DNA of 64,000 bases from Candidatus Bathyarchaeia archaeon (GCA_050010755.1 JBEKKK010000002.1:32001-96000); one strand, 5' to 3'; positions 23,357 through 62,984 are shown, numbered from the stretch's first letter. Translations and numbers: made by a program. Notes: generated from the sequence alone by a model not told the origin.

Positions 23357-23470
23357 CCTATCCCCTTCCACGCATAATTCATAGGTTGATTGAATCAATA
23401 CTTATGATTTTTGGAAGAATCCTCAATTGAAATCGTGACTATAAGCAAACAAAAGGGAGCCCAGCGCGCT

Positions 23471-23541
23471 GGCTTGTCCCAAAATTAAGTGTTGAAGTAA
23501 GTCGGTGACACTGCTTTGTCTTTTCGCTAGGTGTTTTGAGC
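23471..23541 (-). mobile_element. Truncated right end of an IS related to 45976-47074
   Basis: Reverse strand encodes DKAVSPTYFNT*, the same C-terminus as the transposase, followed by TIR GGGACAAGCC and AGCGCGCT. Confidence 0.88.
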
Positions 23542-23591
23542 GCGTGTTTTAAATTCATCAGTCCCTGATTGGAGCTAATAGCTGGCGGTTC

Positions 23592-24509
23592 TTGGTGATC
23601 GATACAGAAAACCTGACAAAAAAATTCGGGAACCTTACAGCCGTTGACAGCCTCACGCTGCATGTTAATGATGGCGAAGTTTTCGGCTTTCTCGGTCCGA
23701 ATGGCGCAGGGAAAACAACGACTGTCAGAATGCTTTGCTGTCTAATATCAAAGACTGGCGGCTCTGCGAAGATAGGAAATTACGAAGTCGGAAACAGAGC
23801 AGATCAACAGAAAATAAGAAGAATGATCGGTCTACTGACTGAAAATGTCGGTCTCTACGAGGAACTGAGCGCCTATGACAATCTCGATTTTTACGGTCGA
23901 TTCTACAGGCTGGACGAACAGAAAAGGAAAGAGCAAATACAGTATCTTCTCAAGATGCTGGGGTTATGGGAAAGAAGAAACGAAGCAGCAGGAACTTTTT
24001 CCAAGGGGATGAAGCAGAAACTCGCAATAGCCCGCGCCCTCATCCATGACCCACAAGTCCTGTTCTTGGATGAGCCAACTGCAAACCTCGATCCGGAAGC
24101 CGCTAAGACGGTTAGAGACTTCATTCTCGAGCTGAAAAAGGAGAAAAGAACAATCTTCCTAAATACGCATCTTTTGGATGAGGCTGAAAAGATCTGTGAC
24201 CGGGTTGCGATACTAAACACTCGACTAATCGCAACAGGCACCCCGCAAGAGCTAAGGCGTTCGCTATCTGGCAGAAAGATAAAGGTTCAGCTTCAGCGGG
24301 TTGATAATGTAATCGTGGAAGCGATAAAGAAAATCGGTTTCCAAGTTTCCGAGGTAACTCCTAATAGTCTAGTCGTTGATGTCAGCGACCCTGAAAAAGA
24401 GAATCCAGCAATTTTAAAAGCGATTGAAGCTGCAGGCGGACACGTGCAATTCGTAACGGAGATCGGCTCGTCTTTAGAAGATGTGTATCTCAAGCTTGTG
24501 AGGGGATGA
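23592..24509 (+). CDS. ABC-2 type transporter ATP-binding protein
   Basis: GPNGAGKTT, FSKGMKQK, FLDEPT, NTH. Confidence 0.95.
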   Translation: MVIDTENLTKKFGNLTAVDSLTLHVNDGEVFGFLGPNGAGKTTTVRMLCCLISKTGGSAKIGNYEVGNRADQQKIRRMIGLLTENVGLYEELSAYDNLDFYGRFYRLDEQKRKEQIQYLLKMLGLWERRNEAAGTFSKGMKQKLAIARALIHDPQVLFLDEPTANLDPEAAKTVRDFILELKKEKRTIFLNTHLLDEAEKICDRVAILNTRLIATGTPQELRRSLSGRKIKVQLQRVDNVIVEAIKKIGFQVSEVTPNSLVVDVSDPEKENPAILKAIEAAGGHVQFVTEIGSSLEDVYLKLVRG

Positions 24510-25255: not shown

Positions 25256-25311
25256 AGGCTCTTTATCTTTGCCGAGAAGTGAAAAGCACAATTAATGAGA
25301 GGTAGTAGTAA

Positions 25312-25563: not shown

Positions 25564-25695
25564 AAGTGCATCGCGCGCGCCCGGTATGCACCGAAAAGCC
25601 CCGATGGCTAACAAACAATCCCTTAAGAAGTCAGAAGTTGCGAAGGGTTATTTGACAAATCTGAAGTTTAATTAGGCATTTGCAACTATTCTTTC

Positions 25696-27431: not shown

Positions 27432-27519
27432 GCGGGGGTTGCCAAGCATGGTCAAAGGCGTAGGCCTGAGGCGCCTATCCTGTAGGGGTTCGTGGGTTCA
27501 AATCCCACCCCCCGCACCA
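27432..27519 (+). tRNA. tRNA-Leu (GAG), CCA encoded
   Basis: GCGGGGG/CCCCCGC acceptor stem, TAGGC-CTGAGGC-GCCTA anticodon arm, long variable arm, GGTTCAAATCCC T arm. Confidence 0.95.
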
Positions 27520-28445
27520 TCATTGAACACCCCGCTGTTAATGAGATTCTGACCAAATATCTGAACTATTTGCTATGCAAGAAAGCCTTGAAGCCAACTA
27601 CCATCAAGCGAAAAGTCAAGACAATCAAGAGCCTTTTGAAACACGGTGTTGAACTGCCTAATCCAGACAATGTGATAGCCTTCTTGAATACTAGTGGTTG
27701 GGCTAGTGGAACTAAGGACATCACGATTGACGCTTATCGAGACTATCTGAATATGCTGGGATTGACAGAGGTCAAGTTGCCTCACATTAGAAGAGAGGAG
27801 ACTTTGCCTTTTGTTCCGTTGGAAGAAGAACTGGATTCCGTCATTTCAAGTGTTAGAACGAAGATGGCAACGTTTCTCAGGGTGCTGAAAGATACGGGTG
27901 CTCGACCTATTGAGGCTTGGACGTTGAAATGGACTGACATTAGCACAACTGCTAAGTGTGTTACTATTACGCCAGCAAAATACAGTCACGCAAGGAAACT
28001 CGGCATTACGGAGCAGACATTGAATATGCTTCTAGCCCTGCCAAAGAAGAACCAATACGTTTTTTCCTCAAGCGGTCAAAGAGACAGATTCGCTGATGAA
28101 CTGGAGCATTTCGCTATCAATTTTGTCAAAGCAAGAACCAGAGTAGCAAATAAGATGCAAAACCCTCGAATCAGGTTGATAAGTCTTAGGACTTTTAGAC
28201 ATTGGAAAGCCACAATGCTCTACCACAGAACAAAAGACATTCTGTTTGTCAAGGAAAGTCTTGGGCACGTCAACATTCAGAATACGCTAAGATACATCCA
28301 TTTAGCAAACGCTGTTGCGACTATTCAGGACGAATATGTGTGCAAGGCGGCTAAGACAATCGAAGACGCATCGCAATTGATTGAGAACGGATTTGAGTAT
28401 ATCTGTGACCTTGATGATGCGAGATTATTCAGGAAAAGGAAGTGA
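27492..28445 (+). CDS. Tyrosine recombinase, int(C) part of a split integrase
   Basis: TGARPIE (R), AK, RTFRH (RH), LGH, RY catalytic set; ORF starts inside the tRNA T arm. Confidence 0.92.
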   Translation: MGSNPTPRTIIEHPAVNEILTKYLNYLLCKKALKPTTIKRKVKTIKSLLKHGVELPNPDNVIAFLNTSGWASGTKDITIDAYRDYLNMLGLTEVKLPHIRREETLPFVPLEEELDSVISSVRTKMATFLRVLKDTGARPIEAWTLKWTDISTTAKCVTITPAKYSHARKLGITEQTLNMLLALPKKNQYVFSSSGQRDRFADELEHFAINFVKARTRVANKMQNPRIRLISLRTFRHWKATMLYHRTKDILFVKESLGHVNIQNTLRYIHLANAVATIQDEYVCKAAKTIEDASQLIENGFEYICDLDDARLFRKRK

Positions 28446-32624: not shown

Positions 32625-34320
32625 TTACACAAAAACGTTTTCTCTTATTTTTCTGCGGACAAATTTCTCGATGCTTTCATTACTGGTATGGAACCCTTCT
32701 AGCTCTTGTCCGCTCAGCATGAGGAACGAATAAGGTTTGGAAGTGTGACGAAGCATCTCGTCTCGAGAATCCCGTGAGAATCCCGAAGTTGAAACGATTA
32801 TCGCTAGCTTGATCTTTTCACTGTACGAATCAACTACTGCGACAAAGCTCCTGACCGCTGAAGCGCTCATAGGTCCTTCCAAGTTCTTGCATTCCACTAA
32901 GCAATAAGGCGAGTAACTTCTTAGCGCGCCTTTTTCAATCTCAGCTATTAGATCAATTTCGGCGGTCCTCGTTCTTTTTCTGGTTTCTGTAACTTTGACG
33001 CCTTTTATGGAGTTTAAGAAGACTCTGAAATAATTCTCGAGGGCAATGCCTCTCTCGTTTGGGGTGGTTTGCCTTCTCTTTACGCCGTTTCTCCAAAGCT
33101 GAAGCAGTTGAATTTTCAAGGGTAAATCCTTCATTCCTAGATCTTTAATAGTTTCGTTTGAAGGAAGATTGGATAGCTTGTTTAGGTACTGAGCCAGCAT
33201 AGATTTCTTGAAGCTGGTTTTGACATCTTCTTCGCCCAATCTGTCATAAACCACATTTAGAAGGATATTGGCATCTTCCAGAACCGTTCTTCCTTTGACG
33301 AGCTCTTTTTCCACATTAGTGTAAACTTCATTCAAGTGATCTTTTGAAATGACGACATTGCTGGTTTTGGATTTGACGGCCTTAACTATGGTATTAGCGA
33401 AACCAGCATCAACACTTATCGGAGAGAGTGACTGAGACACGGTATTGACTTGCTGACGTAGAGTTTCGTCCGAAAAACCGATAGTTTCCAATTCCTGAAG
33501 GATCAATCTTATTCGGTCTCTAATCGGAGGGTGAGTCGCTTGGATACTATCATGAACAAGATAGTCAGGTGAATTGAGAAACAAACAAAGATATGGGGGG
33601 CCAAGATAGCGCGCCGATATTATGTCCGGAACGATTTCGCTCGTCCATTCGTAAGCCAATCTGACGGAAGATTCGTCTAATTGTCTGTGCGCCATTGAGT
33701 TAAATATATCAGAGGATATTTTTAGGTGCTCGTCGACAATGTGAGCTGCCTCATGTATAAGTGCTGGCAACTTTTTCCAATTGTCAATGTCTATCAGTGG
33801 AACTGAAACAAAATACGGTAGTTTCATTAATTTCTGGATTAAGTTGGCATCCAAAACATTCGAAAATCCAGCTACCTCCTTGCCTGGGAAATAGACGCTA
33901 AACTCTGATCCTACTGTAAAGAACAGAGCATTCTTTATCTCGAACCTGTCAAGAAAATCATACATAAACGCATTCAATTCTAGGAAGGTATTTGAGGAAC
34001 CTAGACTGAACTGATGCAAGAAATAAGCTATCCTTTTCAACAAATGATCATAGAATTCGAGGTAGCCCAGAATTGCTTCCATATTTTTGCTTCCGACGCC
34101 TGCTTCCACGTCCCGCAAAATTCCGATCTTGTACTCAATGCTTCCTTTCAACCATTCCAGCGCTTCTTCAAAAGTCGATATGTTGAATAGGTTTGGCGAT
34201 ACAGCTTCATTTTTCTTGATGTTTTTTAAGTAGTTCTGGACATCCCTGTGTCTTTCCCTCAATAGTTCGACGTATTTTTTCGAAAGGTATATCAATGAAG
34301 CTTCTCGGGACATCTCCATC
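32625..34320 (-). CDS. HExxH metalloprotease-like domain fused to Mrr-like restriction endonuclease
   Basis: IHEAAH, WTSEIVPD..GPPY, THPP; C-terminal GIALE, EIDL...VECKN, VSTSGFS. Confidence 0.78.
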
Positions 34321-34455
34321 GTGTCAGCTCCAGTAAAACCGTTTGTGTAAATAGGCAACTGCAGTCTACACACAAGATAATTTCAACATAAATTCTTTTG
34401 TATGTTCTGAGCACGTTTTGAGCAGAACATTCGGCAATGTCCAAAAGAACTCTAC

Positions 34456-36666
34456 TCAAACGAACAGATTTTCGCGGATTACCTCTTTTTCGTATTCAGA
34501 AAGTCCCGAACCCTCTAGGAAATCCTTGTTACCTATTTTTTCCAATAATTCGCTTTCACCAAGACCCAGCGGCACTGCACGCTCCAACTTTCTAATTGCT
34601 GAATTAGGGATTCCATATTCCACCAGAATTGAAAGATCATCCCTAACAAAATCGTTTTCAATCTGCTTTGCGAAGAATGAGTAATCTCCAGCGGACAATC
34701 CACATTTTTCGCAGACGAATTTCTGCAGGCTGTTAACTACGCTGAGCCATTTGGGAACTTTGTAGTGGAACCAATGTCTTAGTATGTCAAATGCTTCTCT
34801 AATTGAGTCGTCAATAAGTGCTTGCTCCGATTGGTTCTTTTTGTTTGCTTTGAAGTACCGGTATGTGCTTGCCGCTAGCTGCGAAATATCCTGGCTCCTT
34901 TTATAGTCATTTGTGACCTTGACTAGTCGTTTGAGAGTCATTGGTCTCGTTGTTTCGGTTTTCTTAAGCAAGTTTTTCCAACCTAATGTCAAGACGTATT
35001 CAAGTTGTCGATAGTTTGGAAGACCACTCCAGTAAAGAAGTTCACGTTTCTCTAGAATCTCTTTCTTAAGACAATCAAGAATCGCTGCTTGACCTTTTAC
35101 TAGGACACCATTTTTCCTGAATAGGTCCCTTTCTTCTTTGGGGATTTTCTGAAGATCATTGTATTGCTCTGTTTGTTTGTTTCTGACGTCTTCTTCATCT
35201 AGCTGAATCAATACTTCATCAGAGATTTTCTCGGTTTGTTCAAAAAAAGGTATGTCCACTATAATTCTTTCCTTTTCAGGTGGTCTATTAAAATTAAAAA
35301 TCCTTCCGACATAATGAATCATCATCCTCCCAGATCTACCCTTAATGTTGTTGTAATCGAAGTAATCTATCGCTTTTCTGTATCCCTTGTACTTGTCAAA
35401 AAATACTACATTCTTGGCACTCGTATTTACTCCTTCAATTATCGTTGTTGTGCAGAACAGATAGTTTAGTTTGGGCGCATTAAAGTAACGAATCATCGAA
35501 GAGGTTAAATGCCTCTGTAAAGCCCCATCATGTATTCCAATTCCGTGATTTAAGCACTCAATCAATCCCCATCTTTCGTTGACATTTTCCTTAATCCAAT
35601 CAACAAGATTTAGTTCTTTACTAGCAACATCAGTATTTTTGTCTTTTAGATAGTTGCAGAATTCTCTCGAGAGATATCGCACCTTGTGTGGTGACGAACA
35701 ATAGATTATCGTTTGCTCGTTTCGTAGACTATAGAGAAGATCGAACAAAGCCTTTTCTTTCGCTGTCTTCTTTTTCCCTCGTTCACCAAAATCCTCTGAG
35801 CATTTATCGATCACTCGATTGTCAACCAAAGTGTACGTAGTTGGGAAAAACGTCGCGTTGTATTTTTCAGCAAAACCTGCCGAAATACCGTCGATATTGG
35901 GCCCGAGCAAATAGAACTTGCTTTTATGTTTACTAAGCAACAAATTAAAAGCATTATTCAAGACGTCAGATCTTTCTTCATCTCTGTTCGCGCTCAACTT
36001 ATAGAATTCGTCTACAACGGCGAAGTCTATTTGCGGGAGTTGAGGATATTCCATCACTCTCTCAGCAGTGAACAGAAATATGTTTCCTTTCTCTCTTGAG
36101 AAATCTTGAGAAGTTCGCACAATTACCTTGTAATAGTCGCCATATCTCTGCAATTTCTTTCTCGTTTCATCTATTAATGCGAGCGTGGGTTGAATAATAA
36201 CTATGTTTTTGTACTTTTTGCTCGCCACAACTTCTTGTATTAAAAGGCTTTTTCCAAAGCTTGTTGGAGCACTTGCTATCACATTTCTTCCTTTTTTCAG
36301 TAAGTCAGAGAGAAATCTCTGCTCTTCGTGAAAGTAGCACTCATGGAGATAATCTGAGCCATAAGTTCCCTTTCTAATTTCACCAGCCGTGTTCTTGAAG
36401 ACTAAATTTACCTTTTCTTTTTCAAGATATGGATAGAAGCCTGCAGACTCAATTAAATCCGTCCACATTTCACGGGTCGAAGTATCGATCTTGGTCCAAT
36501 TATCAAGAACATTTATAATTATTCGTCTTCCCATCTCTTCGGTTTCTGCTTTTCCTAATAATTCTGAACATGTTTTCGCGATATCGAAACTTTTGCTCAT
36601 ATCTACGAGATTTGTAGCCACCAGCTCATCGATTATTTTTTCAACTGAATTCTCCAACATCATCAC
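34456..36666 (-). CDS. hamB: Hachiman helicase HamB (SF2 Ski2-like)
   Basis: APTSFGKS, QPTLAL, DEFYK, GIGIHDG, TTTIIEGVN, NIKGRSGR; abuts hamA. Confidence 0.85.
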   Translation of the reverse strand: MMMLENSVEKIIDELVATNLVDMSKSFDIAKTCSELLGKAETEEMGRRIIINVLDNWTKIDTSTREMWTDLIESAGFYPYLEKEKVNLVFKNTAGEIRKGTYGSDYLHECYFHEEQRFLSDLLKKGRNVIASAPTSFGKSLLIQEVVASKKYKNIVIIQPTLALIDETRKKLQRYGDYYKVIVRTSQDFSREKGNIFLFTAERVMEYPQLPQIDFAVVDEFYKLSANRDEERSDVLNNAFNLLLSKHKSKFYLLGPNIDGISAGFAEKYNATFFPTTYTLVDNRVIDKCSEDFGERGKKKTAKEKALFDLLYSLRNEQTIIYCSSPHKVRYLSREFCNYLKDKNTDVASKELNLVDWIKENVNERWGLIECLNHGIGIHDGALQRHLTSSMIRYFNAPKLNYLFCTTTIIEGVNTSAKNVVFFDKYKGYRKAIDYFDYNNIKGRSGRMMIHYVGRIFNFNRPPEKERIIVDIPFFEQTEKISDEVLIQLDEEDVRNKQTEQYNDLQKIPKEERDLFRKNGVLVKGQAAILDCLKKEILEKRELLYWSGLPNYRQLEYVLTLGWKNLLKKTETTRPMTLKRLVKVTNDYKRSQDISQLAASTYRYFKANKKNQSEQALIDDSIREAFDILRHWFHYKVPKWLSVVNSLQKFVCEKCGLSAGDYSFFAKQIENDFVRDDLSILVEYGIPNSAIRKLERAVPLGLGESELLEKIGNKDFLEGSGLSEYEKEVIRENLFV

Positions 36667-37599
36667 CTAAATATTCTGAAGCATCCATAATTTCTCGTGC
36701 ATTTTCCTCACCAGGTCATCCTTGCATTTTACTGGAAAAAGCATTAGGATTATGTTCAAGTTTGTCTTAAGTGGGTGGTCATTATGCTTGTCAAAATAAT
36801 CCCTTAATTCATTCACCTCTTGTTGATAGTCTGTAATGAACTGAGGCAGAGCTTCATCATTATACTTGACGAAATTCTGGCTTGAATATGTCAGCAGTAG
36901 CGGAATGGTTACAGAGTGAAGAACGTCGAGTAGTTTCTTGCTTCTGTGCATTAGATCAAGCCAATATTCTTTATGCGGTATTTCTTTGTAGAGTTTTATT
37001 CTCTTTGAGATAATCGCAAATTCGTCTTGAAGATAATCTCGCTTGAAGTGATCTTTCACGTCCTTTAGCAAGGCGCTAATTCCTTTTCTCCCGTTTGTAT
37101 ACAGCTTGGATTCCCCGAGCCACAGGCTTTTTTCTGGAGGATAAATATGCACAGCATCAAAGCCATGTGGAGGCAATCCATAAGAATCCTTGAAGTAAAT
37201 CTTTGACAACAAAGGAACGGTGTTGTTGAAATCTCTCAAGATGAGATGAAGTACTAATTCGCCAAATTCTCCTCTTTCAAGGTATTCCTTCTCTGCGCTT
37301 TCGTCAGAAATGCATCCTCCTTGTTGGTAGATTTCCCACAAATCTCGGAATTCCTTTATTTTGTATATGGATTTTGCAGCTTCACGCAGCTTTTCCACCA
37401 TGTTAATCGAAGTGATTTTCTCGTCACAATAATATTCAAAAGCAAATTCGGGGATCACATTCGTCAGAAGAGTTATCAATTCATCCAATCGGTAATATTT
37501 TTTACCATCATTGTTTGAGTCAAATCCCACAAAATAAGTCTTAAAATGAGCGTCTGATATCTTTTCAGTTATAACTTTCGCTGCTCCAAACGACTGCAT
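36667..37599 (-). CDS. hamA: Hachiman HamA (DUF1837) nuclease
   Basis: GEFGELVLHLIL, SKIYFKD, HGFDAVH, LWLGESKLY. Confidence 0.88.
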   Translation of the reverse strand: MQSFGAAKVITEKISDAHFKTYFVGFDSNNDGKKYYRLDELITLLTNVIPEFAFEYYCDEKITSINMVEKLREAAKSIYKIKEFRDLWEIYQQGGCISDESAEKEYLERGEFGELVLHLILRDFNNTVPLLSKIYFKDSYGLPPHGFDAVHIYPPEKSLWLGESKLYTNGRKGISALLKDVKDHFKRDYLQDEFAIISKRIKLYKEIPHKEYWLDLMHRSKKLLDVLHSVTIPLLLTYSSQNFVKYNDEALPQFITDYQQEVNELRDYFDKHNDHPLKTNLNIILMLFPVKCKDDLVRKMHEKLWMLQNI

Positions 37600-37788
37600 G
37601 TCCAGTCATTAAGGTTGATCGCTTTTTAACTTTTGGCATGGAAACATGGGCTAGGTTTGTCCAAAATAAAGGAAACATGAGGGAGCCGCCCTATTTCGAG
37701 AGCCTTTTAAGCCTAATAAATGTCATAGTTAGCCTGTAACGGCTTGAAATATGACCGAAATTGAAAATAATCCTGAAACAATATCCGA

Positions 37789-37821
37789 TGGCCGACGAGA
37801 GTTCGAATCTCTCCGAGGCTA
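37789..37821 (+). other. Orphan tRNA 3'-half fragment (Gln-like), probable att scar inside short ORF 37751-37822
   Basis: GCCGAC-GAGAG-TTCGAAT-CTCTC-CGAGGCT-A = T arm plus acceptor 3' strand; no 5' half nearby. Confidence 0.7.
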
Positions 37822-38145
37822 ACGCACCTTCAACCCCTCTAAACAATGCAAATCGACCGCCTTTTCGGTATAAAAGCCATAGAAATTGTTGTTTAATCGC
37901 GGACAGATAGAACAATTTTCTAGAAGGTTCAAATTCTCGGCTTGATATGAACCCCCAACTTTTACTTGATGGTTATAATTGCTGCGTCCAACTGAACAAT
38001 AGAATAGCGAACGTTGTGAGATACGATGTTTCAAGAACCCGCAGACTTCTTTTGATGCGATCTGGAGGCATCATTCGAAAGTCAAGTTGTTGAAACACAG
38101 GTGAAAGAAGTGAGTGAGCGAAACTGTACTTAATCTAAAATCCGC

Positions 38146-39729
38146 TTAGAAGGTTAAGCCCAAACTGTCCATCAATTTGGAGCCTTGTTTTGGTTCTCCT
38201 TTAATCCTAGGTCCAGAACACTGGACATTGATTCCGAAAATGTCGGCACCGAACCCATCGAATATCAGTGTCGAAATGTTGGGCGGATTGACGTCAACTA
38301 TTTTTCCAGAATCTACCTCTTCACAATCTGGAACCGTATTTGTTATGCTCACGATTATTTCATCTAATTCACCTATCGGACAAGCAAGTCCATTCGCAAA
38401 GAATTCTTGATCGTCTTGCAATAGCCTAATTCTTCTGCGAAAAGGTCCATCAATAGGGGTTTCAGGCGTATTCCACGATTCTTGAATCGTGTACTTGGTA
38501 GAAGACAACGACTTGCCTGTGACGATCACTCCTTCATACGTGCCAATTTCTCTTTCCCTGCGCGATAATTCAAAAACTTCTCGATTTATCCCTCCCAGTA
38601 TCTCAAGTTTCATTCTCTTTTTGGTTTTTGAAGCCCAAGAGCAATATCTGAGAGGTTCCATAGTGAAATGTTCTATCCTCACTCGACTTCCTTCGAGGCG
38701 ACTGAAATGTTCAAAAGACTTGTAAATATCCTCAAACCCGCTCCAACTCGTAGGAATGCAACTCAAATAGAAGTCTACACCAATATCTAGAACCCAATCT
38801 CCCTTCCTATATGCGTAGAGCACCAGAAAGCAGGTTCGATCATAATGTTCGCCGTAACATCCTTGCATTATTCCGCCTACTGCAGCTCTACTATGTTTTC
38901 TCAACTCCGTAATCAGATTTTTTGCACCGCAACCATAAGTATACTTGTGGTCTTCGGAAATCGTCCAATTGAGTGATCCATATGTCGAAAGCAAGTAAGA
39001 GGCAAACTTCCATTTTTGCTCAACTTCTTGAGCAAATTTTCCAAACTCTTCGATTTCACCATCGCATGGCGGTCTAGAACTGGCGTACACACAAGCTCGA
39101 GTTCCCCCGATCTGAGGAGGAGGAACCCATGTGAAATGAGGAATGAATACTGGAATCATCGCAAGCGCCGATAGTATTCCCCTTTTTTCAGTTGTTCGCG
39201 AAATTGCAGGTTTCGTTCCAATTATGACGATACTATTATTTCCATTCATGGAAAATCTTTCGCCCAGCCTAATTACTTCGACGGCCCTCCCTAACCCTTC
39301 CTTAGTGAGTTTTAGCAAAGCGCAACCCAATTTTTCCCAGTCTTTCTCGCAGGGCACCCTTTCTCCGATTAAGCTGTGATAAATCTCACTGACCTTTCTG
39401 TATTTTAGTTGCACTTTTCGGTGTTCACCGTGCTCACGTGCATGAATGAAATGGTGCCTCAATTCACTTATGGATAATCTCATTGAATCTACCCATGGAT
39501 CACTTGGAAGCCGCTTCCCATCAGCAGAAGACTCGATTATGAACTTGTACAACTTCTCTACGAGCTTATGGAAGTCATCTTCTGATCGGCAAAGAAACGA
39601 CGACAGTTCAATTACTAGACGTTCATTTTCCAGTACTGTACTGAATATTGGGTCTTTCCCTTGAAATCTAGCTGCCTCATTACACCTTATTCTTGAAGAA
39701 ACAATGTCAGTAACGATCTCGTTAGTCAT
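38146..39729 (-). CDS. Hypothetical protein, possible N-terminal HEPN-like domain
   Basis: 527 aa, SD GAGGTG; helical N-terminus with LRHHFIH (Rx4H). Confidence 0.65.
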   Translation of the reverse strand: MTNEIVTDIVSSRIRCNEAARFQGKDPIFSTVLENERLVIELSSFLCRSEDDFHKLVEKLYKFIIESSADGKRLPSDPWVDSMRLSISELRHHFIHAREHGEHRKVQLKYRKVSEIYHSLIGERVPCEKDWEKLGCALLKLTKEGLGRAVEVIRLGERFSMNGNNSIVIIGTKPAISRTTEKRGILSALAMIPVFIPHFTWVPPPQIGGTRACVYASSRPPCDGEIEEFGKFAQEVEQKWKFASYLLSTYGSLNWTISEDHKYTYGCGAKNLITELRKHSRAAVGGIMQGCYGEHYDRTCFLVLYAYRKGDWVLDIGVDFYLSCIPTSWSGFEDIYKSFEHFSRLEGSRVRIEHFTMEPLRYCSWASKTKKRMKLEILGGINREVFELSRREREIGTYEGVIVTGKSLSSTKYTIQESWNTPETPIDGPFRRRIRLLQDDQEFFANGLACPIGELDEIIVSITNTVPDCEEVDSGKIVDVNPPNISTLIFDGFGADIFGINVQCSGPRIKGEPKQGSKLMDSLGLTF

Positions 39730-40051
39730 GGAGACACCTCATCGATATTACCTCTCCCTTATGTGATATTAAAAAGAGTGTTCCTTAGTGTGCGCTATTT
39801 ACAGTTGCGCTTCTTCAAAAATCAAGAAAGTCTTTAGAGACTTGAATGGTACGTGCGCGCCTTTAACAACGATTAGAAATGTGTGCAGATTGAAGTGGAA
39901 TTCGAGACCAATTGGGTTCCGAAAGACGAGGAAGAAGTCAAAAAAATTCATTCAACTTGGGTATGATAACAAGTTCAACGAAAAATAGTGAAAAATGTCA
40001 AAGAAAAACTGCAAGGTAGGCAACCAAGAATAGGCTGAGACTAACGCGCCG

Positions 40052-42100: not shown

Positions 42101-42293
42101 GAATACAAAAGATGATGTAACTCCTAATGAAGATTATGGGCGGTCGATAATCATGTATTGTCAAGTTGGTATAGAGCGCGCGCTAAGATTCATATTCCTT
42201 ACATGAACAATTTAACACTTATCAGGTGCTAGGTGACGAGGAGGCTAGGAAATGAAGAATGCAGCGCGTGCTCGGGGCGGTCTCTGGCTTGAA

Positions 42294-44721: not shown

Positions 44722-45216
44722 ATTCCCTTCAGCAGAAGCAGAAACCGTCTATAAACTTTTTGTGAAGCGCACACTCTTGCTCTCCTATTCGCCCACATTC
44801 GACGCCGCTCTAACAGCAAACAGCGCGCGCAACACGGATTAATCAAAACTCGTTTTTATTCGTTTTATTCGTTTTTGTTTTTTTGTTTTCGGAGCGAACA
44901 TTCATTCGGATAATCGGAAGCATGGTTCGCGAGAAGTCGCGGATTCTGTCGTTGTTGGTGTAGTGTTGAGAACGAACGAAAGAAAAAGGGACTTTGAGCG
45001 CGTTAATCAAAACGCGTCTGTTCGTCGTCTTGTATGTCAAGTCGCATAGTCGGAAGTTCAAGTCCTTTAAGCGCGCGCTAGACACGAGACAAACAAGACG
45101 GAAGTGAAATCGTCAAAAACGGATGAACCCCGCAAGCGCGCAGTTGCATCTTGCGCGAGAAAAGCAGCCTATTGTCCTATGACTTTAGATGAATCTAATT
45201 AAGGTGTTACACAATA

Positions 45217-45966: not shown

Positions 45967-45975
45967 TAGCGCGCT

Positions 45976-47074: not shown

Positions 47075-47126
47075 AGCGCGCGATTTATAAGTGCGCTCTG
47101 ATTCTGTTCGGGAGCCTTGAGGGGAA

Positions 47127-47843
47127 TTGGAATTGACGGATCAGAAGTCACGCGGGATTTATCGCAATATCAGCGCGACAAGAATGGTAGCCTCAACACT
47201 CGGTGTTTTCGGCGGACTCATGAGTATGGAACACGGTTTTTTTGAAACACTTCAGGGTAATCACTCACCAAACAGCATAATCATAGACGCTATCGGTAAC
47301 CAAGCAAACAGCGCCTTTCAGGGCAGTGAACCTGCCTTAACGATCATACCCAACTTCTTAGTAACTGGCATACTTGCGATGATTGTCAGCCCTATAGTCA
47401 TAGTATGGGCGGCCAAGTTTATCCAAAGGAAGAACGGCGTATTCTTCCTGATTCTTCTCTCAACCATCCTTTTTCTGTTTGGAGGAGGACTTGCACCTCT
47501 ATTAATTCTTGTTATCGCAAGTGCAGTCGCCACCAGGATAAACAAGCCGTTAACGTTTTGGCGCGTGCATCTCTCAGGCAACGCAGGTCGCTTCTTGGCA
47601 AAGTTGTGGCCTTATCCATTCATCGTCGTGTTCTTGCCGTCTTTAATCAACGTTCAAAATGCAATTTTTGGGAATTTCTTCGGTTTGAACATTCCGAATT
47701 TTTCAGCAATTCTTTTTCTCTTCATTTTTGGGCTACTTCTGCTAAGTGTTGTCAGTGGATTTGCGTATGATATCCAAAAAAAGACCGATTCACATCAGAC
47801 ACCTTCAAAGACCCAGCAAACAAGCCGCACGCGCCCTAATTAA
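47127..47843 (+). CDS. Hypothetical multi-TM membrane protein
   Basis: 5-6 TM, EHG.FE..QG, EPA.T..P. Confidence 0.75.
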   Translation: MELTDQKSRGIYRNISATRMVASTLGVFGGLMSMEHGFFETLQGNHSPNSIIIDAIGNQANSAFQGSEPALTIIPNFLVTGILAMIVSPIVIVWAAKFIQRKNGVFFLILLSTILFLFGGGLAPLLILVIASAVATRINKPLTFWRVHLSGNAGRFLAKLWPYPFIVVFLPSLINVQNAIFGNFFGLNIPNFSAILFLFIFGLLLLSVVSGFAYDIQKKTDSHQTPSKTQQTSRTRPN

Positions 47844-47857
47844 TTTAGGGACAAGCC
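47842..47857 (-). repeat. Extra IS terminal inverted repeat
   Basis: AATTTAGGGACAAGCC is the exact reverse complement of 45976-45991, followed by AGCGCGCT. Confidence 0.85.
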
Positions 47858-47863
47858 AGCGCG

Positions 47864-48217
47864 CTATTGCATAAGGCTGCTCACCCAAGCCCAAGCTATG
47901 AGACTCAGGAGGATACCCCAAATAATCCCAAAAATAAGCAAGTTTTTAGCCATATCCTTGTCTCTGTCTTTCGTTCCGACATATCCAATCAGCCCCCCAA
48001 TAATTCCGAAAAAGAACGGTACCAGATACCATAATGACGACGGCGCGTCAACACCGTAGTATTCCTCAGTTTCTTGAAGTTCTGAAGGATTATAAGTGCG
48101 CGCGTTAACATTTATTCTGCGAGCTCCGCAATATGGACATGCTACCCATGTTGACTCGATCACTTTCTTGCATTGAAGGCAAACTGTGGTAGGAGTTGTC
48201 CCTTCCCTCTCTGACAT
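47864..48217 (-). CDS. Zinc-ribbon membrane protein
   Basis: CLQC..CPYCG, two C-terminal TMs. Confidence 0.75.
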   Translation of the reverse strand: MSEREGTTPTTVCLQCKKVIESTWVACPYCGARRINVNARTYNPSELQETEEYYGVDAPSSLWYLVPFFFGIIGGLIGYVGTKDRDKDMAKNLLIFGIIWGILLSLIAWAWVSSLMQ

Positions 48218-48420
48218 CTCTATTCCATGATCATTACTGAAGTAGCACCTTAAAAAGACTAATCCTACGAGCACTCTCCATGCGCGCGCGAACCAAACAC
48301 CTCCAAAAACACAATAGTCTGAGATCCAATTAGCGCGTGCGCTAAGGGCAACCCACGAATATCCTCTTGGGCGAAATCATTAATTAGTCGGCAAGCAAAT
48401 CATGGAGTTGTGAGTCACGA

Positions 48421-48813: not shown

Positions 48814-48871
48814 CATAAACATTTTGCTTAGACAGAGCTTAGTTTGGTTCTGAGACCGCGCGCCCTTTTTG

Positions 48872-51707: not shown

Positions 51708-52218
51708 AGCGCGGCTAGTCAACGCTAAAACTGCAGAAGATTCAAGCAGGAACAATTGAATGGTTTTGAAAAGGATCCGAAAAAACTACAGGAAAATTTA
51801 GCGAACATTCAAGGATGGATAAGGGAAATTGAAGCCTTGTTGAATGCGTTTACACTTTAGCGCGCGCGGAATCTCCTTTCTATATACGGAAACATGTCCT
51901 CAATAGATTATTTGCAGATTACAGATTAGTCGGTTTGATACTTTCTAGGATTAGCGAACGCTTGAGGATGAGAAGAATGAAGGGGAAGACGAAGAAGAGG
52001 AAAACAAAAGGCGTGGAAGTTGTCTCCGATACTATCAATTGCTTATTAGCGTTTGAACTTGATGGCGATTCTCGCTGTGCCGGAGATGCCTGCCTTAGTG
52101 GCTGTTAAAACAGTGGGGTCTCACTTTCAAAAGAGTATCCTCGCCATCGGATAGAGCTGATTCAGCTCGCCCTATGACGCTCAAATGAAAGCTTCCGCCC
52201 GCGCTCATCTTGTCTCGT

Positions 52219-52929: not shown

Positions 52930-53247
52930 TCTTTTCGGTTAATAGCATACTATTCACTTAAAACCTTCCGTCGGCCCGATCTCATTTCCCGCAGTTGCTC
53001 CTGCAAGTGCGTTCGTGAATCATTGATTTACGACTTCAGAAAAGCGTTCAGTGGGAGCGAGTTTCTCTGCTCGCTTTGCAGAAAGAACAACGTCACTCTC
53101 CTTCACAGCGGCGAGCGCGCCATAAACTTTTTGTAAAACGAACCATTTTACTCTCCTATCCGTCCACAACCCTGACTCCGCACGCGTACCGGTTTTGGGG
53201 AAAAGTTATAGCTGAACCGAAAGTAATTGGCTTGAAGGGTGTTCTGA

Positions 53248-53775
53248 TTGCTTGAGGGTAAACTTGTGAATCTGAGGGTTGTGGAGAAAGAAGACTTGCC
53301 GTTATTAGCTGAGTGGCGCAACGATCTTGAGTTTTTCGGTGAATTCGAGCGGTTTCCACAGCTTTCTCGAGCGGAGTTGGAAAGGAGGTACGACGCTCTC
53401 ACCTCTGACGATAAGTGGTTCTTCATAGAGAAAAAAGACGGCACGAAAATTGGGATTGCCACCCACGGTTTGACAGGAAACCTCCTCGAAATAGGATATA
53501 TCCTCGTTCCGAATGAGAGAGGAAAGGGCCACTGCACGGAAGCCGTGAAAATAATGGTTGATTACCTGTTTCTCAGCAAAGACACAGTGCGCATCCAAGC
53601 CGCAACTGTCACAGGAAATGTAGCCTCTCAGAAGGTCCTGAAGAAAGCTGGCTTCAAGAAAGAAGGAACACTTCGGAAAAGCTACTTCCTGAGAGGCGAA
53701 TGGACAGACAGCCTAATCTACAGCATCCTCAGAGAAGAATGGAAAGAACCAAAAATACTGACAAAAACCGCTTAA
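53248..53775 (+). CDS. RimJ/RimL-type GNAT acetyltransferase
   Basis: EIGY, RGKG..TEA, NVASQKVL.K.GF..EG. Confidence 0.9.
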   Translation: MLEGKLVNLRVVEKEDLPLLAEWRNDLEFFGEFERFPQLSRAELERRYDALTSDDKWFFIEKKDGTKIGIATHGLTGNLLEIGYILVPNERGKGHCTEAVKIMVDYLFLSKDTVRIQAATVTGNVASQKVLKKAGFKKEGTLRKSYFLRGEWTDSLIYSILREEWKEPKILTKTA

Positions 53776-54014
53776 AGAAAGCTAATTTGATAAAAACCTG
53801 GCTTGCGCCCACGCGATGTATCGGTTGTTTTGGCAGTTTTGATTTTAACTTTTTCCATGATTCGCTTTTCATATCCTCTCGCGCCCCACATTACGGACGT
53901 GACGGAGACTCAAACGAGGTAAGACCTGCCGTACCAACAGTTGGAACGGTGCAGTACTAATGCCTAGGATTAACTAGGAGACTCTAATCTAGAACTAGCA
54001 TGGAGTGAGATTGA

Positions 54015-57081: not shown

Positions 57082-57525
57082 GGTCTAATGTCTCATCACT
57101 GAGGTTACGTAAGCGCTATCACTTCCGCTGATCGTTCGGAATAAGCTTGAGCGCGCGCTACGAGTTGTGCTCAGCACCGGCAAAAAATTTCAGATTCCCA
57201 CTGCACCGAACATGCCTTTCTTCGCCAGCTTGGCTCGAACGCCTCCTAGAATCCTTTCCGATGCGCCTATTCGCACCAAGAAATGATAGTATTGAAGAAG
57301 CATTCTATAATAGAGCAATTGCAAGCCAAGAAGAGTCAACTGCACTGCCATTCCAACAGCTCAATTGCAGTAGAGATTTGCAACTTATTAAAGATTTAGA
57401 AGGCGCACGCTACTACCCATAAACCCTTTTCCTGATTCATAGAAATCTCTAATCTGCACAGCAACAAAAGCGCGCCCGACTTAGGGCAGTGAACTGTAAG
57501 GATCAGAAGTCTTATATTTACAGCA

Positions 57526-58179
57526 TTGGAACAACCAGTTTGGCGAAAAATCACGTTAAAATCTGAGAATTCACCTCCCATTCCTCCACCACCTCCTACT
57601 CCTCCCCCATCAGGAGTAACGCCCAAGAGTCGCATGAAGCTTATCATTGCTTCCACACTCATAATCGTCGTTGTAATCGCAGCCGTTCTAGGCTACTGGC
57701 TATTGTTCAGATCTGGAGGAGGAAACCAGTCATGGATTTTCAAAGGAGCCTACGCGAACTATCAGGGACAGGAAACGCTAACAGGCTTGAATTACACTAT
57801 AAACATGACGATTCACATGGAAGTCTTGGGCTTCAACAGCACAGACGTGGAGATACTCTCAAACACTACGTCAGAAACGGCATTAGGAACGCCCTTCAGC
57901 TACAATTATACATCGTGGATGCTTCGCACCAGCGCTAACGACTTCAACGTCGAAGGCGGAAATTTGACTAACAGCTATGACACAACCATCACATTGAGCA
58001 ACTTGGGAAAACGCAACTGCATAGCCTATGAATACTCGATCGCAGGAACAAATGAGATCATGACAGTATACGTTGACAAAACAGTAGACTTTCCAGTCGA
58101 GTGGAGCGTGACTTCAACAGGAACCCCCAGCCTCAACTTTGACGTAACCCTAGTCTCAACAAACATACCTGGCCTGTAG
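57526..58179 (+). CDS. Membrane-anchored hypothetical protein with Pro-rich N-terminus
   Basis: PPPPP tract, TM, W.F.GAYA.Y; start uncertain. Confidence 0.7.
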   Translation: MEQPVWRKITLKSENSPPIPPPPPTPPPSGVTPKSRMKLIIASTLIIVVVIAAVLGYWLLFRSGGGNQSWIFKGAYANYQGQETLTGLNYTINMTIHMEVLGFNSTDVEILSNTTSETALGTPFSYNYTSWMLRTSANDFNVEGGNLTNSYDTTITLSNLGKRNCIAYEYSIAGTNEIMTVYVDKTVDFPVEWSVTSTGTPSLNFDVTLVSTNIPGL

Positions 58180-58325
58180 TTAACGCAGTGTTATGAGAAT
58201 ATGTCAGAAGCGTTACCATCAGCAAAGCGCCCGCACTCCTGAAAGGGTTTTAAGATATGTCTGACTTTATTTCACCGTTTTCGTACTTCAGGAGTAGCGT
58301 CAAAAAGCCAGCAATAAGCTAAACG

Positions 58326-58937
58326 ATGCTAGCGCGCGCTAGTGTTAAATATAGCGAATCAGAAACGAGCAAGCTGAAGGCGAAGTCTTTGAAGGAAATC
58401 GAGTTGAAACTTCTCATTGAGCTTTTGAGGGGAAGTCGGAGAAGCGACAGAGAATTGTCAAAAGTATTGGGGATTTCCCAGCCTACTGTTTCGAGAGTCA
58501 GGTTGAGGCTTGAGAAGGAAGGCATAATCAAGGAATACACTATAATTCCCGATTTTGCAAGTCTCGGTTTCCAATTAATGTCCGTGACCTTTCTCAAGTT
58601 TGCAGGGCCACTTTCTAGCGAAGGGCTCGAAAGCCTGAGAAAAAACAGTCAGAAACTGAAGGAAAACTATCCTTCCGCAACCATACTTGCCCTAAGCGGA
58701 ATGGGCATGGACGGCCAACGTGTAATCCTGACTTACCACAAGGACTACTCAGAATACGTTGCCTTTGTAAAGAATGCAAAGAGTGAGCGCGCTCCAGAAA
58801 TCGTCAGTGAAATCAGAAGCTTCCTCGTAGATTTAAATGACAAGAGCAATTTCATGCCCCTAACATTCTCGTACATGGCCAAGTACCTCCAGAAGACCAA
58901 TGGAAACTCAGAGAAAGCCCACGCGCCTTCCACTTGA
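58326..58937 (+). CDS. Lrp/AsnC-like winged-HTH regulator
   Basis: SRRSDRELSK.LGISQPTVSR...LEKEGII..YT; true start probably ~58374-58389. Confidence 0.85.
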   Translation: MLARASVKYSESETSKLKAKSLKEIELKLLIELLRGSRRSDRELSKVLGISQPTVSRVRLRLEKEGIIKEYTIIPDFASLGFQLMSVTFLKFAGPLSSEGLESLRKNSQKLKENYPSATILALSGMGMDGQRVILTYHKDYSEYVAFVKNAKSERAPEIVSEIRSFLVDLNDKSNFMPLTFSYMAKYLQKTNGNSEKAHAPST

Positions 58938-59064
58938 AAACGAATTTGCCGATGATCCGCGTTGCAAGTCCTTGATTAGCGCGCGCCAACCAGACAGACA
59001 AGACTTCGTGCCCACAAATCTATTTCAATACTGAACGGGATATGTTTTGTGCGGATGCGTGCAC

Positions 59065-59793: not shown

Positions 59794-59824
59794 ATGCTTC
59801 AAGCGCGTGCATGCTGAAAGGAGA

Positions 59825-60280: not shown

Positions 60281-60621
60281 CGTCTTTCACCTCCCTTCTC
60301 AACCTGCGCCTGGGCTTTTTCAAGAGATGAAATAAAAGCCGCTTCAGGATGCTCACCGGGTTCAAAGGTCAAGCCAAGTTTCTCGTACAATATCTTTAGT
60401 ATCTCTGCCTCAAGGAACCCCGCTCCTGATCCAAAGATCCTCTCTATTGCCGGAACAAAAAGATCCGTCCGGCTTGCAATATTTTCCTTTCGCAGATTGT
60501 ACTTGTCCTCAAGATAAGAATAAATTACCTGTTTCGGAGATTCTCCAAGGACTGATAATCCCTTTTCAACCGAATCTGCAAGAATACTCTCAAACTCTAA
60601 GTTAGGTTTCACCTGAAACAC
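60277..60621 (-). CDS. Small archaeal signalling-associated protein (DUF3227-like)
   Basis: L..LGE..K..IY..LE..Y.L, IE.IFG.GA..LE..I...LY; overlaps the receiver gene. Confidence 0.7.
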   Translation of the reverse strand: MFQVKPNLEFESILADSVEKGLSVLGESPKQVIYSYLEDKYNLRKENIASRTDLFVPAIERIFGSGAGFLEAEILKILYEKLGLTFEPGEHPEAAFISSLEKAQAQVEKGGERR

Positions 60622-60886
60622 CCCGAGGCAGACACAATGAAAATGCGCTTGGGCCTAATATTAGCTGTGAATTCTGAGTATTGAGACTCAATTCGCAAAG
60701 AAAGCACAAGCCGTCGCGCTCTGAGAAGACTAGAGCAATAGAAGCTCCAAGCGCAAATCGCGCGAGTTTGAATCAATACTACACTTTGTAGCTATATATT
60801 GCATGTTCGCAGCATTTAATTACAATCTTTTTTGCATTATATGTTACGTTCGGATTTAAACCTGTCTCAGGAAGTATTCGAGAAAA

Positions 60887-62884
60887 ATGATCGCGGACCA
60901 GTTGTTAGGAGCCTTATTCTGGGCGGTCCCATTGGCCTTCACGTTAGCTCTTTCTGTGTTTCTCATTTATCGGGCGCGCAAGGATAAAGACAAACGCAAG
61001 CAGAACCCACAGAAAAAAGCCTTGGAGGACCTTGAAGCATCCGAAGAGAGATACAGAAACCTCTGTGAAAACGCTCGAGTCGGCATACTTAGAATGGATC
61101 GGAAGGGAACCGTCACCTACGCGAACAGGCTCATAAACGAGTACGGACTGAACAGAGAGGATATCATTGGAAAAAACATGCTCAGATTCATACCCATGAA
61201 AAACCGGCCGAAGATGTTCATGGAACACATTAGCGTTGTCCGCGGAAACAACGCTGAGGGCGAAACAGAAATCATAACGCCCAAGGGGAAACGCATCATA
61301 GAATACGTAAGCAACCCTGTGAGGCATGACGGAAAGATAATCGGCTGCGAAACGGTAATGCAAGACGTCACCGATAAGAAGGAGATGAAAAAGAAGCTTG
61401 AAGAATACGCGGCACGCCTAGAGACGATGGTGGAAGCGAGAACCGTTGAACTGAAAAAAAGCGAGGAAAAGCTCGGCCTCATGGTTGTCCAACAAGCATC
61501 GTTGATGCGAAGTTCAGCGGAAATGATTCGTTCAAGCGATATGCGTCAACGTCTTCAAGCCATTGTGGATGCGATTCAGGGTCTAGGTTGGCGAAGAGTC
61601 ATACTCTCAGTGAGAGATGAGGAACTAGACCTTTCAGAACCTCAGAATCTAGTGACAGCCGGATTAACAGAGAAGGAACAAGAGTTCATTTGGACCAACC
61701 GGCAATCGGGTAAGATTTGGCGAGAACGTTTTGGACCCGAATTTGAGCGTTTCAAACTCGGAGAATTCTACTACCTACCCTACAGCGATCCTATGGTCAG
61801 AGAGAAGTTCCGCAGAGGAGTCGTGTTCAGCCACCTTAACCCCAAAGAGATGGTCGATTGGAACCCTGATGACCTGCTCTACGCACCGCTTCGTCTCGCA
61901 GACGGGCGCATCGTCGCAGTGTTAAGCATTGACGACCCAAACGACGGAAGAAGACCCACCAAGGACACTTTGAAACCATTAGAGCTGTTTCTGCATCAGG
62001 CTGCTGTCGCGATTGAAAATGCTCAGTTGATCAAACAGTTGAATGAGGCTAACGCCCAGATCCAACAATACGCAGGGCAACTTGAGGAAAGAGTGAAAGA
62101 AAGAACGCAGGAATTGGTTGACGCCCAGAAAAAACTGTTGCAATCTGAGAGACTGGCCGCGATTGGTCAAATTGCGGCAATGGTCGGACACGACCTGCGC
62201 AGTCCCTTGGCCGGCATCAGGAACGCGGCTTACATCATCAAAACACGAGCAGGCCCCAAGTTGGATGAAAAAGAGAAACAAATGCTTGAAACAATAGATG
62301 ACAACGTAACCCACTCGAACAACATCACAAACGACCTGCTAGATTTTTCGAGAGAGATCAAACTCGAAAAACAACTGATAAACCTGAAAGCAGTGGTTCA
62401 ACACTCATTGATGGCTGCCGGCATACCTACGAACATTGACGTGAAAGATCTGATACCCGACAGTATCATAATAGAAGCCGCAGCGGACAAAATGGAAAGA
62501 GTTTTCACGAACATCATCAAGAACGCCGCAGAATCAATGCCAAACGGTGGCCTCTTGACGATAGCCTCAAACACTGGCGGGGAAAATTTGTCCGTCAATT
62601 TTACGGACACTGGAGTCGGAATGCCAGATGAAACCTTGCAGAAGCTCTGGACACCCCTCTTCACAACCAAGCCAAGAGGAATTGGACTTGGACTTGTTAT
62701 TTGCAAGAGATTCATCGAAGCCCACGGTGGCACAATAACCGTTACTAGCACATTAGACAAAGGAACAACCTTCACGATAACCCTGCCTAAGATCCAAGAC
62801 GACAAGAAGCAGGAAGCAGTTCAGGTGGCTATTGTGCCCGCCACTGAGACACCACAGGTAGTCAGTGAAATCCGGAGTGCTTGA
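60887..62884 (+). CDS. PAS/GAF sensor histidine kinase
   Basis: PAS, GAF, HDLRSPL, NIIKNA, DTGVG, FTTK..G.GLGL. Confidence 0.95.
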   Translation: MIADQLLGALFWAVPLAFTLALSVFLIYRARKDKDKRKQNPQKKALEDLEASEERYRNLCENARVGILRMDRKGTVTYANRLINEYGLNREDIIGKNMLRFIPMKNRPKMFMEHISVVRGNNAEGETEIITPKGKRIIEYVSNPVRHDGKIIGCETVMQDVTDKKEMKKKLEEYAARLETMVEARTVELKKSEEKLGLMVVQQASLMRSSAEMIRSSDMRQRLQAIVDAIQGLGWRRVILSVRDEELDLSEPQNLVTAGLTEKEQEFIWTNRQSGKIWRERFGPEFERFKLGEFYYLPYSDPMVREKFRRGVVFSHLNPKEMVDWNPDDLLYAPLRLADGRIVAVLSIDDPNDGRRPTKDTLKPLELFLHQAAVAIENAQLIKQLNEANAQIQQYAGQLEERVKERTQELVDAQKKLLQSERLAAIGQIAAMVGHDLRSPLAGIRNAAYIIKTRAGPKLDEKEKQMLETIDDNVTHSNNITNDLLDFSREIKLEKQLINLKAVVQHSLMAAGIPTNIDVKDLIPDSIIIEAAADKMERVFTNIIKNAAESMPNGGLLTIASNTGGENLSVNFTDTGVGMPDETLQKLWTPLFTTKPRGIGLGLVICKRFIEAHGGTITVTSTLDKGTTFTITLPKIQDDKKQEAVQVAIVPATETPQVVSEIRSA

Positions 62885-62984
62885 CGGGAATGAGAATAGC
62901 CTATGCTCCTTCTTTGGTGCACGGCGCGCTAGAATATTTCGACAGCTTCAGTCAATTATCCATAATGCGTTGGGCGGTGGCATC

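Follow-up and report, generated by a model that had tools for sequence, protein, structure and literature searches.

How do unrelated accessory genes come to lie side by side, separated again and again by the same few letters? The question is raised by a 64,000-nucleotide stretch of DNA from a Candidatus Bathyarchaeia archaeon, referred to here in its entirety as the window (G000:C2:32001-96000; the genome, G000, comprises 2.19 Mb in 8 contigs, with 47.7% GC and 93% completeness). The original prediction had pointed to GC-dinucleotide palindromes at gene junctions and had read them as the joints of a cassette-assembly system, either integron-like or of a cut-and-join type, with insertion-sequence targets as an alternative. 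We use the term run for an alternating-GC stretch of at least 6 nt, and write (GC)3-5, (GC)4 and so on for particular lengths. In our view such runs mark, and may mediate, the shuffling of accessory genes. The reading that we favour, and hold with about even confidence, is that a lineage-specific process has (GC)3-5 runs as its recombination joints and as hot spots of insertion. The original observation is partly confirmed and its interpretation partly supported, but the runs are not an integron.

The runs are strongly enriched between genes throughout the genome. Genes in G000 were called by a crude longest-ORF method, which gave 2246 open reading frames (ORFs) of at least 70 aa and left 14.6% of the genome as intergenic. 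The hexamer GCGCGC occurs 921 times, compared with 392-619 expected, and forms part of 668 runs in total, 370 of them intergenic. The small intergenic fraction holds 546 of the 921 hexamers (59%) and 176 of the 253 copies of GCGCGCGC (70%), giving densities of 1.71 per kb in intergenic and 0.20 per kb in coding DNA, an approximately eightfold difference. GCGCGC and GCGCGCGC are the most over-represented intergenic 6-mer and 8-mer, respectively, whereas eight other GC-rich hexamer palindromes are only 10-18% intergenic. The same contrast is seen in G002 (1.68 versus 0.22 runs per kb), a sister species with approximately 83% identity in shared genes and one of the five genomes of the genus (G000-G004) that we compared. 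Prokaryotes generally suppress alternating-GC words of 6-8 nt (PMC4060949), so the intergenic excess is unusual in itself and needs a cause.

The runs concentrate just past stop codons and are under-represented in the 60 bp upstream of starts. Convergent spacers are the densest, with 1.77 runs per kb, and divergent spacers hold 0.89 per kb; along G000 the density varies, with peaks in 20-kb bins of lower GC content. Run length is 6-11 nt. Across the 740 flanks of the 370 intergenic runs the only preferences are for A at position -1 (56%) and, weakly, for T at -2 (35%), both symmetric. The runs start with G on both strands, intergenic DNA holding 102 copies of GCGCGCGC and 17 of CGCGCGCG. The decayed forms GCGCAC and GCACGC are likewise over-represented in intergenic DNA, which argues for continual production rather than conservation. 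As alternating G-C of at least 6 nt, the runs would be prone by sequence to adopt the Z-DNA form. Two simple explanations were considered and rejected. A dinucleotide microsatellite does not fit, as only GC/CG repeats are enriched (9-fold to 49-fold over a first-order model, others 1-fold to 5-fold) and no run exceeds 11 nt. Intrinsic terminators consist in bacteria of a stem-loop and a T-run after it, and in archaea of an oligo-T tract; the runs have neither a T-tract nor a hairpin context, T making up 27-29% at -12 to -3 on both sides, and they are frequent in divergent spacers.

Within the window there are 43 overlapping copies of GCGCGC in 35 distinct runs, 26 of which lie from 39855 onwards. 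Dinucleotide-preserving shuffles of the window gave a mean of 11.55 copies (s.d. 3.56, maximum 22), and none of 100 reached 43. Among the 31 sites that had been listed in the original prediction, 21 carry at least (GC)3; the other ten (23539, 27337, 40045, 42263, 44997, 48331, 51667, 51708, 52200 and 59802) hold only GCGC or GCGCG. The statement that the motif lies at most accessory junctions was too strong, as simple ORF calls place a run in 13 of the 26 intergenic regions between 39.7 and 64 kb. Its reported absence from the tRNA-integrated element and the Hachiman defence block is borne out by the region from 23.4 to 39.7 kb, where one of 14 intergenic regions has a run; the figure for the core part (1-23.4 kb) is one of 21. 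The fullest palindrome, CTAGCGCGCGCTAG, does occur once only, at 58329. The ORF ending in PYALARARL runs through the run at 49628 as described, and runs within ORFs are found at 25373, 32924, 33609 and 58787.

Comparison with G002, for which 1.55 of 2.33 Mb was used and 762 reciprocal-best orthologues were obtained, indicates that the runs belong to the variable part of the genome. Where the two neighbouring genes have orthologues that are also adjacent in G002, the density in spacers is 0.36 runs per kb (11 runs over 408 spacers), compared with 1.13 where synteny is broken, 1.20 where one neighbour has an orthologue and 1.36 where neither does. Runs are therefore 3-5 times rarer in syntenic than in other intergenic regions. 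For spacers of at least 100 bp, a run is present in eight of 102 syntenic and 88 of 357 other spacers (Fisher p = 1e-4), and the difference holds in every length class, as would be expected from the original claim that accessory and core junctions differ. Of the 11 syntenic spacers with a run in G000, only three have one in G002 as well, which shows that runs turn over quickly between species.

The ends of homology between relatives also fall at runs. When the 120-bp flanks of intergenic runs were compared with G002, both were collinear in five cases, one in 95 and neither in 270; the corresponding figures for random intergenic positions were 442, 575 and 1983. For coding runs they were 73, 37 and 188, compared with 982, 244 and 1774 for random coding positions. 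A metagenome contig approximately 91% identical to G000 (L188) proved to be a mosaic of G000 segments. Five of the nine internal ends of high-scoring segment pairs (HSPs) of at least 90% identity lie within 5 bp of a run in either sequence, where approximately 0.3 are expected, 1.6-1.8% of positions being that close to a run; the same holds for four of 12 ends of 80-90% HSPs and one of 94 ends of 60-80% HSPs. In a self-BLAST of the genome, 23 of 345 repeat ends in intergenic DNA (random, 2.0%) and 19 of 521 in coding DNA (random, 0.24%) came within 5 bp of a run. Breakpoints between relatives therefore do map to the motif, as had been anticipated.

The claim that gene fragments are joined at the motif is supported by several individual joints. 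The following lie in the window.

57088-57150, + strand: 5' relic of an EamA-type transporter gene, intact in G004, L188 and two further relatives (L189 and L196)
57151-57158: (GC)4, exactly at the EamA truncation joint
57159-57399, + strand: unit A; found again (91%) at C4:94873-95125 with (GC)4 on both sides and unrelated outer flanks
57470-57475: GCGCGC, at the start of unit B
57476-58186, + strand: unit B, with an ORF at 57526-58179; a second copy (92%) lies at C8:5376-6087

The EamA-type gene follows a gene of the MFS family and in G000 stops after approximately 60 nt, exactly at the run; at the corresponding place all four relatives are without one. Homology between the copies of unit B begins at the run in both, and their outer flanks are unrelated. 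Elsewhere, gene fragments of 316 and 155 bp each lie between two runs, and their intact paralogues have no runs there. In L188 a 204-bp 3' fragment of a DUF302 gene lies between two runs, the right one of which is common to G000, and the segment C1:934686-936447 has runs at both ends in G000 and none in L188. A secreted-protein gene at C6:58233-59168 has approximately 990 bp (about 330 codons of a repeated N-terminal domain) fewer than its paralogue at C4:78444-80390 and carries GCGCGCGCG in frame at the junction, encoding Ala-Arg-Ala-Gly, although the C4 paralogue has a GC-rich stretch with which it could instead be aligned.

The one step that is shown is that an insertion sequence (IS) inserts between two copies of GCGCGC. 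Loose contig ends and joints reported below for other samples are those among the matches listed for Logan contigs over 44-63.9 kb; these contigs are short and show presence only.

45969-45974: GCGCGC, immediately outside the left end of the IS
45975-47075, + strand: IS of 1.1 kb with inverted ends TGGCTTGTCCC...GGGACAAGGCA (TG...CA) and a transposase ORF at 46014-47060
47076-47082: GCGCGCG, immediately outside the right end of the IS; loose contig ends at 47081-47083 in samples X4, X5, X9 and X11
47083-47858, + strand: passenger unit with an ORF at 47127-47843 (238 aa), ending in a second IS right end
47859-47864: GCGCGC, after the second IS right end, overlapping the TAG stop of a minus-strand ORF (47864-48274); loose contig ends of other samples at 47866, just past the run
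23464-23521, + strand: GCGCGC (23464-23469) followed by a solo IS-end relic (TGGCTTGTCCC...), 86% identical to IS positions 47024-47081 in reverse and ending near the GCGCG at 23540

The relic confirms that the IS end recognized in the original prediction is real. The transposase matches DDE_Tnp_1 (PF01609, 4e-13) and DUF772 (PF05598, 1.6e-9). Copies of the IS with 85-89% DNA identity are present in G001, G003 and G004, and 80 related loci were found in many metagenome-assembled genomes (MAGs) of Bathyarchaeia, with transposases 57-90% identical. Both ends could be located in 59 of these. GCGCGC flanks the left end in 48, the right end in 44 and both ends in 36, or in 51 when one mismatch is allowed. 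The alternative suggestion, that the motif is the target of an IS, thus holds for this IS5/IS1182-like family. In the window and at several other IS loci, a passenger segment is followed by a second right end. The 238-aa passenger ORF matched no family, and the ESM Atlas gave unnamed clusters only; a copy of the unit with 93% identity lies elsewhere in G001.

The arrangement resembles the target-site duplication of DDE transposons, with the two domains, the inverted ends and the same 6 bp on both sides. It differs in that a fixed 6-bp palindromic target, seen in 36-51 of 59 copies, is unusually strict, and in that the transposase of the window falls below the NCBIfam cut-offs for both IS1182 (87.7 versus 270 bits) and IS5_4 (66.3 versus 140 bits). 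The GCGCGC on either side may have arisen by duplication or may itself be the inverted repeat's tip. G000 has one IS copy and 668 runs, only seven of 1336 run flanks belong to any repeated family, and run-rich genomes of other families are mostly without the IS. Close homologues of the transposase are confined to the genus. The IS therefore uses the runs and does not explain them.

Two short repeat families were also seen. A family of approximately 470 bp, resembling miniature transposable elements with inverted repeats (MITEs), has nine copies in G000 (C1:578433, 898022, 1361838, 1071522, 1414264, 219975 and 317913; C2:143193; C7:6302), with terminal inverted repeats that resemble GGCTAGTTAAATAATT, and in several of them a (GC)n run adjoins one end or both. 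The second family holds ACATTACA, which genome-wide is the second most over-represented intergenic octamer (52 copies), and has (GC)4 on both sides at C1:217677-218028 and C13:55754-56040 of G002.

The remaining runs with recognizable surroundings in the window are as follows.

42176-42183: (GC)4 between the OLD-family nuclease gene and the FokI-like gene
44823-44830: (GC)4 after a GNAT gene, kept in L188; homology to L188 stops 25 bp further on
48282-48289: (GC)4 abutting a possible ATG of the minus-strand ORF
48857-48863: run after a DUF302 gene, common to L188; the sequence beyond differs between G000 and L188
49628-49636: run read through by the 3' end of an FMN-reductase-like ORF
51860-51868: run within the 650 bp that separate the TetR gene from a DUF4386 gene
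58329-58342: CTAGCGCGCGCTAG; a contig from another sample (X5) matches only from 58335 onwards
58979-58986: (GC)4 in a 95-bp intergenic stretch, where another sample has 37 other letters instead (joint 58914-59010)
62924-62929: GCGCGC followed by TAG, 40 bp past the 3' end (62884) of a histidine-kinase ORF (60887-62884)

These runs lie in a changeable setting. The genes of the first 21.3 kb are core genes, collinear with the four other genomes of the genus, and the window encodes the archaeal PriL, RFC and ribosomal protein L15e. Collinearity with the relatives returns only at the equivalent of approximately 79.8-87 kb. Between lies a hypervariable region of 58-66 kb beside tRNA-Leu, the only Rfam match in the window, where the relatives have approximately 10-12 kb. 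It contains an ABC transporter, the integrase overlapping the tRNA, a Hachiman pair (HamA and helicase), an Mrr-like gene, an OLD-family nuclease, the FokI-like gene, GNATs, TetR, FMN reductases, an MBL-fold gene, ChrB and MFS. Several of these form a defence cluster at 32625-43640, namely the Mrr-like gene (32625-34373), the Hachiman helicase (34456-36666) with HamA (36667-37599), the OLD-family ATPase/TOPRIM nuclease (40052-42100) and the FokI-like cleavage-domain gene (42294-43640). At 27432-28445 the start of the tyrosine-integrase gene overlaps the tRNA, a tRNA-Leu(GAG). In G004 a homologous integrase lies approximately 19 kb from the tRNA, beyond the ChrB-MFS-EamA genes, and the island has therefore been rearranged around its attachment site. 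The sequencing data sets that contain the stretch are peat and wetland metagenomes; no RNA data set containing it was found, and a search of the G000 genome found no rRNA. In other peat samples the contig depth over a GNAT (Acetyltransf_3) gene at 53248-53775 reaches approximately 300, compared with 1-15 for its neighbours, and 53190-53780 shows many joints, including some that go back 578-588 positions, with varying filler. This suggests that the gene occurs in tandem or multi-copy arrays elsewhere.

An excess of runs is a property of certain lineages. The five genomes of the genus have 168-646 copies of GCGCGCGC each, approximately twice the number of the reversed word; for the family's other genera the count is mostly 0-30. 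Among 151 genomes sampled from the class a like excess recurs in a few other families, the counts of GCGCGCGC and the reversed word being 601 and 339 in G080, 373 and 122 in G089, 325 and 133 in G105, and 120 and 32 in G153; some other high-count genomes have a 1:1 ratio. Run-rich and run-poor genomes are interleaved across the class, the former being scattered over several families. Two 20-kb stretches of G080 contain 13 and 18 copies of GCGCGC, with 2.7 and 1.7 expected, and by eye six of nine and seven of seven runs fall on a stop or outside any ORF of 100 aa or more. Literature searches restricted to main texts found no published description of the motif, and a term search within PMC11697101 gave one passage, which was irrelevant.

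A sequence of steps can be proposed that would account for these observations. A run would be a preferred site of staggered breakage or insertion, and fill-in would duplicate it, so that each insertion would leave a run on either side and runs would multiply. Deletions anchored at runs would leave a run at truncated genes. Since any two self-complementary runs can pair in either orientation, end-joining between unrelated segments would be favoured. Scars within genes and in tight core spacers would be purged, leaving units of promoter plus gene separated by runs. As a more specific and tentative possibility, some Bathyarchaeia may use Ku-independent splicing of arbitrary DNA through a self-complementary (GC)n linker to build accessory islands. 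Equally tentatively, the linker might be cut and duplicated by a palindrome-specific nuclease, or synthesized on broken ends, with the IS having evolved to land there. A search for Ku (PF02735) in G000 found none. We note that Ku is present in 33 of the 151 Bathyarchaeia genomes, concentrated in three families and mostly in run-poor families, a distribution that is confounded by phylogeny.

Several observations weigh against the favoured reading. Four of the nine high-identity L188 breakpoints are away from runs. In the one-sided comparisons with G002 homology reaches to within 2 bp of the run in 32 of 118 cases, compared with 254 of 548 at random positions, which are a poorly suited control; this comparison lends no support to homology ending exactly at the run. 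Five insertions examined relative to the sister species have their outer borders away from runs, the runs lying inside the inserted DNA, and one of the five has an 8-bp direct repeat of its own. Most apparent insertions relative to G002 were artefacts, small ORFs produced by the ORF caller. Empty sites are mostly without a run. A clean pair with two runs in the filled and one in the empty site was not found among the matches listed, which contained only runs in coding repeats and single runs of the substitution type. In alignable, mostly coding DNA, runs are either conserved (30 of 78 and 30 of 94) or differ by one or two substitutions, and five of 172 look like small insertions. As the ancestral sequence at truncated genes has no run, a model based purely on pre-existing targets must add a deletion as a further step. 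With relatives that are 83-91% identical, many breakpoints can be placed only to within tens of bases, and the crude ORF calls and partial G002 sequence must also be counted here. No enzyme acting at the runs was found in the analysis.

The main rival, which the data do not separate from the favoured reading, is that runs are built at the joint: a lineage-specific end-joining or integration pathway would add a self-complementary (GC)n linker to broken ends, which would then be annealed and ligated. A run is indeed present only in the rearranged genome at the EamA joint, at position 1248 of L188, at the ends of C1:934686-936447 and at the L188 DUF302 fragment, and the flanked fragments have intact paralogues without runs. 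The variable length and the G-first bias on both strands would also suit such a pathway, as would a few small replacement scars within otherwise continuous sequence, the scatter of run-rich genomes over families, as gain or loss of one enzyme would give, and the lack of a Ku match in G000. Filler sequences and microhomologies at end-joined breaks and the footprints of transposons are likewise short extra sequences at illegitimate joints, and are palindromic in hairpin-opening or Tc1/mariner footprints, but they vary with the local sequence, whereas here it is always alternating GC. Nevertheless, the preference for A at -1 and T at +1 suits site recognition better than tailing, pure scars are rare (the five of 172), target duplication is a simpler account of an IS between two copies of GCGCGC, some breakpoint runs (48857 and 44823) are common to G000 and L188, and no candidate polymerase or ligase was found. 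We consider this explanation fairly unlikely.

A functional boundary element carried by each mobile gene, such as a protein-binding site, a Z-DNA insulator or a 3'-end signal, would explain why runs lie just past stops and avoid the region upstream of starts, why convergent spacers are densest, and why a distant family (G080) shows the same pattern; it would also supply the cause that the excess of a generally suppressed word calls for. Against this, conserved spacers seldom hold runs, whatever their length class, eight of 11 are not conserved in the orthologous spacer and decayed copies are common. Divergent spacers, which have no gene ends, hold runs almost as often, the T-tract and hairpin context is lacking, and runs also occur at joints inside broken genes. 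This reading is unlikely.

Repetitive extragenic palindromic (REP) sequences and the bacterial interspersed mosaic elements (BIMEs) that they form are a close parallel to the runs, being insertion targets of specific IS (IS1397, ISKpn1 and IS110-family members). Like them, the run is a short, highly over-represented, lineage-specific intergenic palindrome and the landing site of a dedicated IS. The runs differ in being 6-11 nt of pure alternating GC without a conserved flank or tetranucleotide head, and in marking mosaic joints, including those inside broken genes. REPs are 20-40 bp long and imperfectly palindromic, are headed by a conserved GTAG or CGTC, and go together with a REP-associated tyrosine transposase (RAYT); features of REPs are given in PMC3733652. 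A REP/RAYT system was rejected: the Y1 transposase domain (PF01797) was not found in G000, which is 93% complete, or in G080, and is present in G002 and G004.

It is very unlikely that the runs are the tips or excision footprints of GCGCGC-ended transposons (the IS family and MITEs), with cassettes as former composite transposons. Nearly all IS copies do have GCGCGC at both ends even though their transposases are only 57-90% identical, the MITE-like families are likewise bounded by runs, some copies carry a second right end together with a passenger gene, and self-complementary ends at a donor site could re-anneal in other registers to give (GC)3-5. The numbers do not agree with this, a single IS copy and seven repeat-family flanks being set against 668 runs and 1336 flanks. 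Outside the genus a transposase homologue was found in one of five run-rich and two of five run-poor genomes, and G080, in which none was found, has the same intergenic runs, 13 of 16 outside ORFs. The TG...CA ends inside GCGCGC moreover suggest that the runs are flanks and not tips.

Dedicated site-specific shuffling between GCGCGC sites, by an integron-like recombinase or by a restriction-like nuclease and a ligase, as first proposed, is highly doubtful. In integrons each cassette has an attC site, an imperfect inverted repeat of approximately 55-140 bp with conserved core sites, and IntI and attI stand at the head of the array. The likeness lies in unrelated accessory genes separated by a recurring recombination-associated sequence after each gene; run-bounded units do recur elsewhere with unrelated flanks, they lie in either orientation, as a palindromic site permits, and N4/N6 methylases (PF01555) are present in all five genomes of the genus. 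However, the 740 run flanks show no attC-like imperfect inverted repeat and no conserved flank or extended consensus beyond A/T, genes on either strand have upstream regions of their own, a breakpoint partner often has no run, and a segment can have bounding runs in just one of two genomes. No recombinase is linked to the runs: the only Phage_integrase match in the window (27492-28445; IntI-specific features were not looked at) belongs to the tRNA-Leu element, in the run-poor part, and the borders of the five insertions noted above also count against an integron-like array. Because attC-like structure is lacking, partners are often without a run and no C5 methylase (PF00145) was found above the cut-off in any of the five genomes, neither an integron-like nor a fixed-site system is likely; cut-and-join by a Type II restriction-modification system at GCGCGC or GCGC has no supporting enzyme, and run lengths of 7-11 nt do not suit a fixed cut site.

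If the proposed process is real, some lineages of Bathyarchaeia would assemble and reshuffle promoter-plus-gene modules and gene fragments by a natural form of linker ligation. These abundant uncultured archaea of peat and sediments are a group for which the construction of the accessory genome is hardly known, and a palindrome of 6-10 nt that marks where segments were joined provides a simple tag with which gene flux can be mapped across their MAGs. The runs give a defined target specificity for an archaeal IS family. They also offer a concrete search image for a recombination or end-joining activity, which, since run-rich genomes lie interspersed with run-poor ones throughout the class, is open to a search by phylogenetic profiling.

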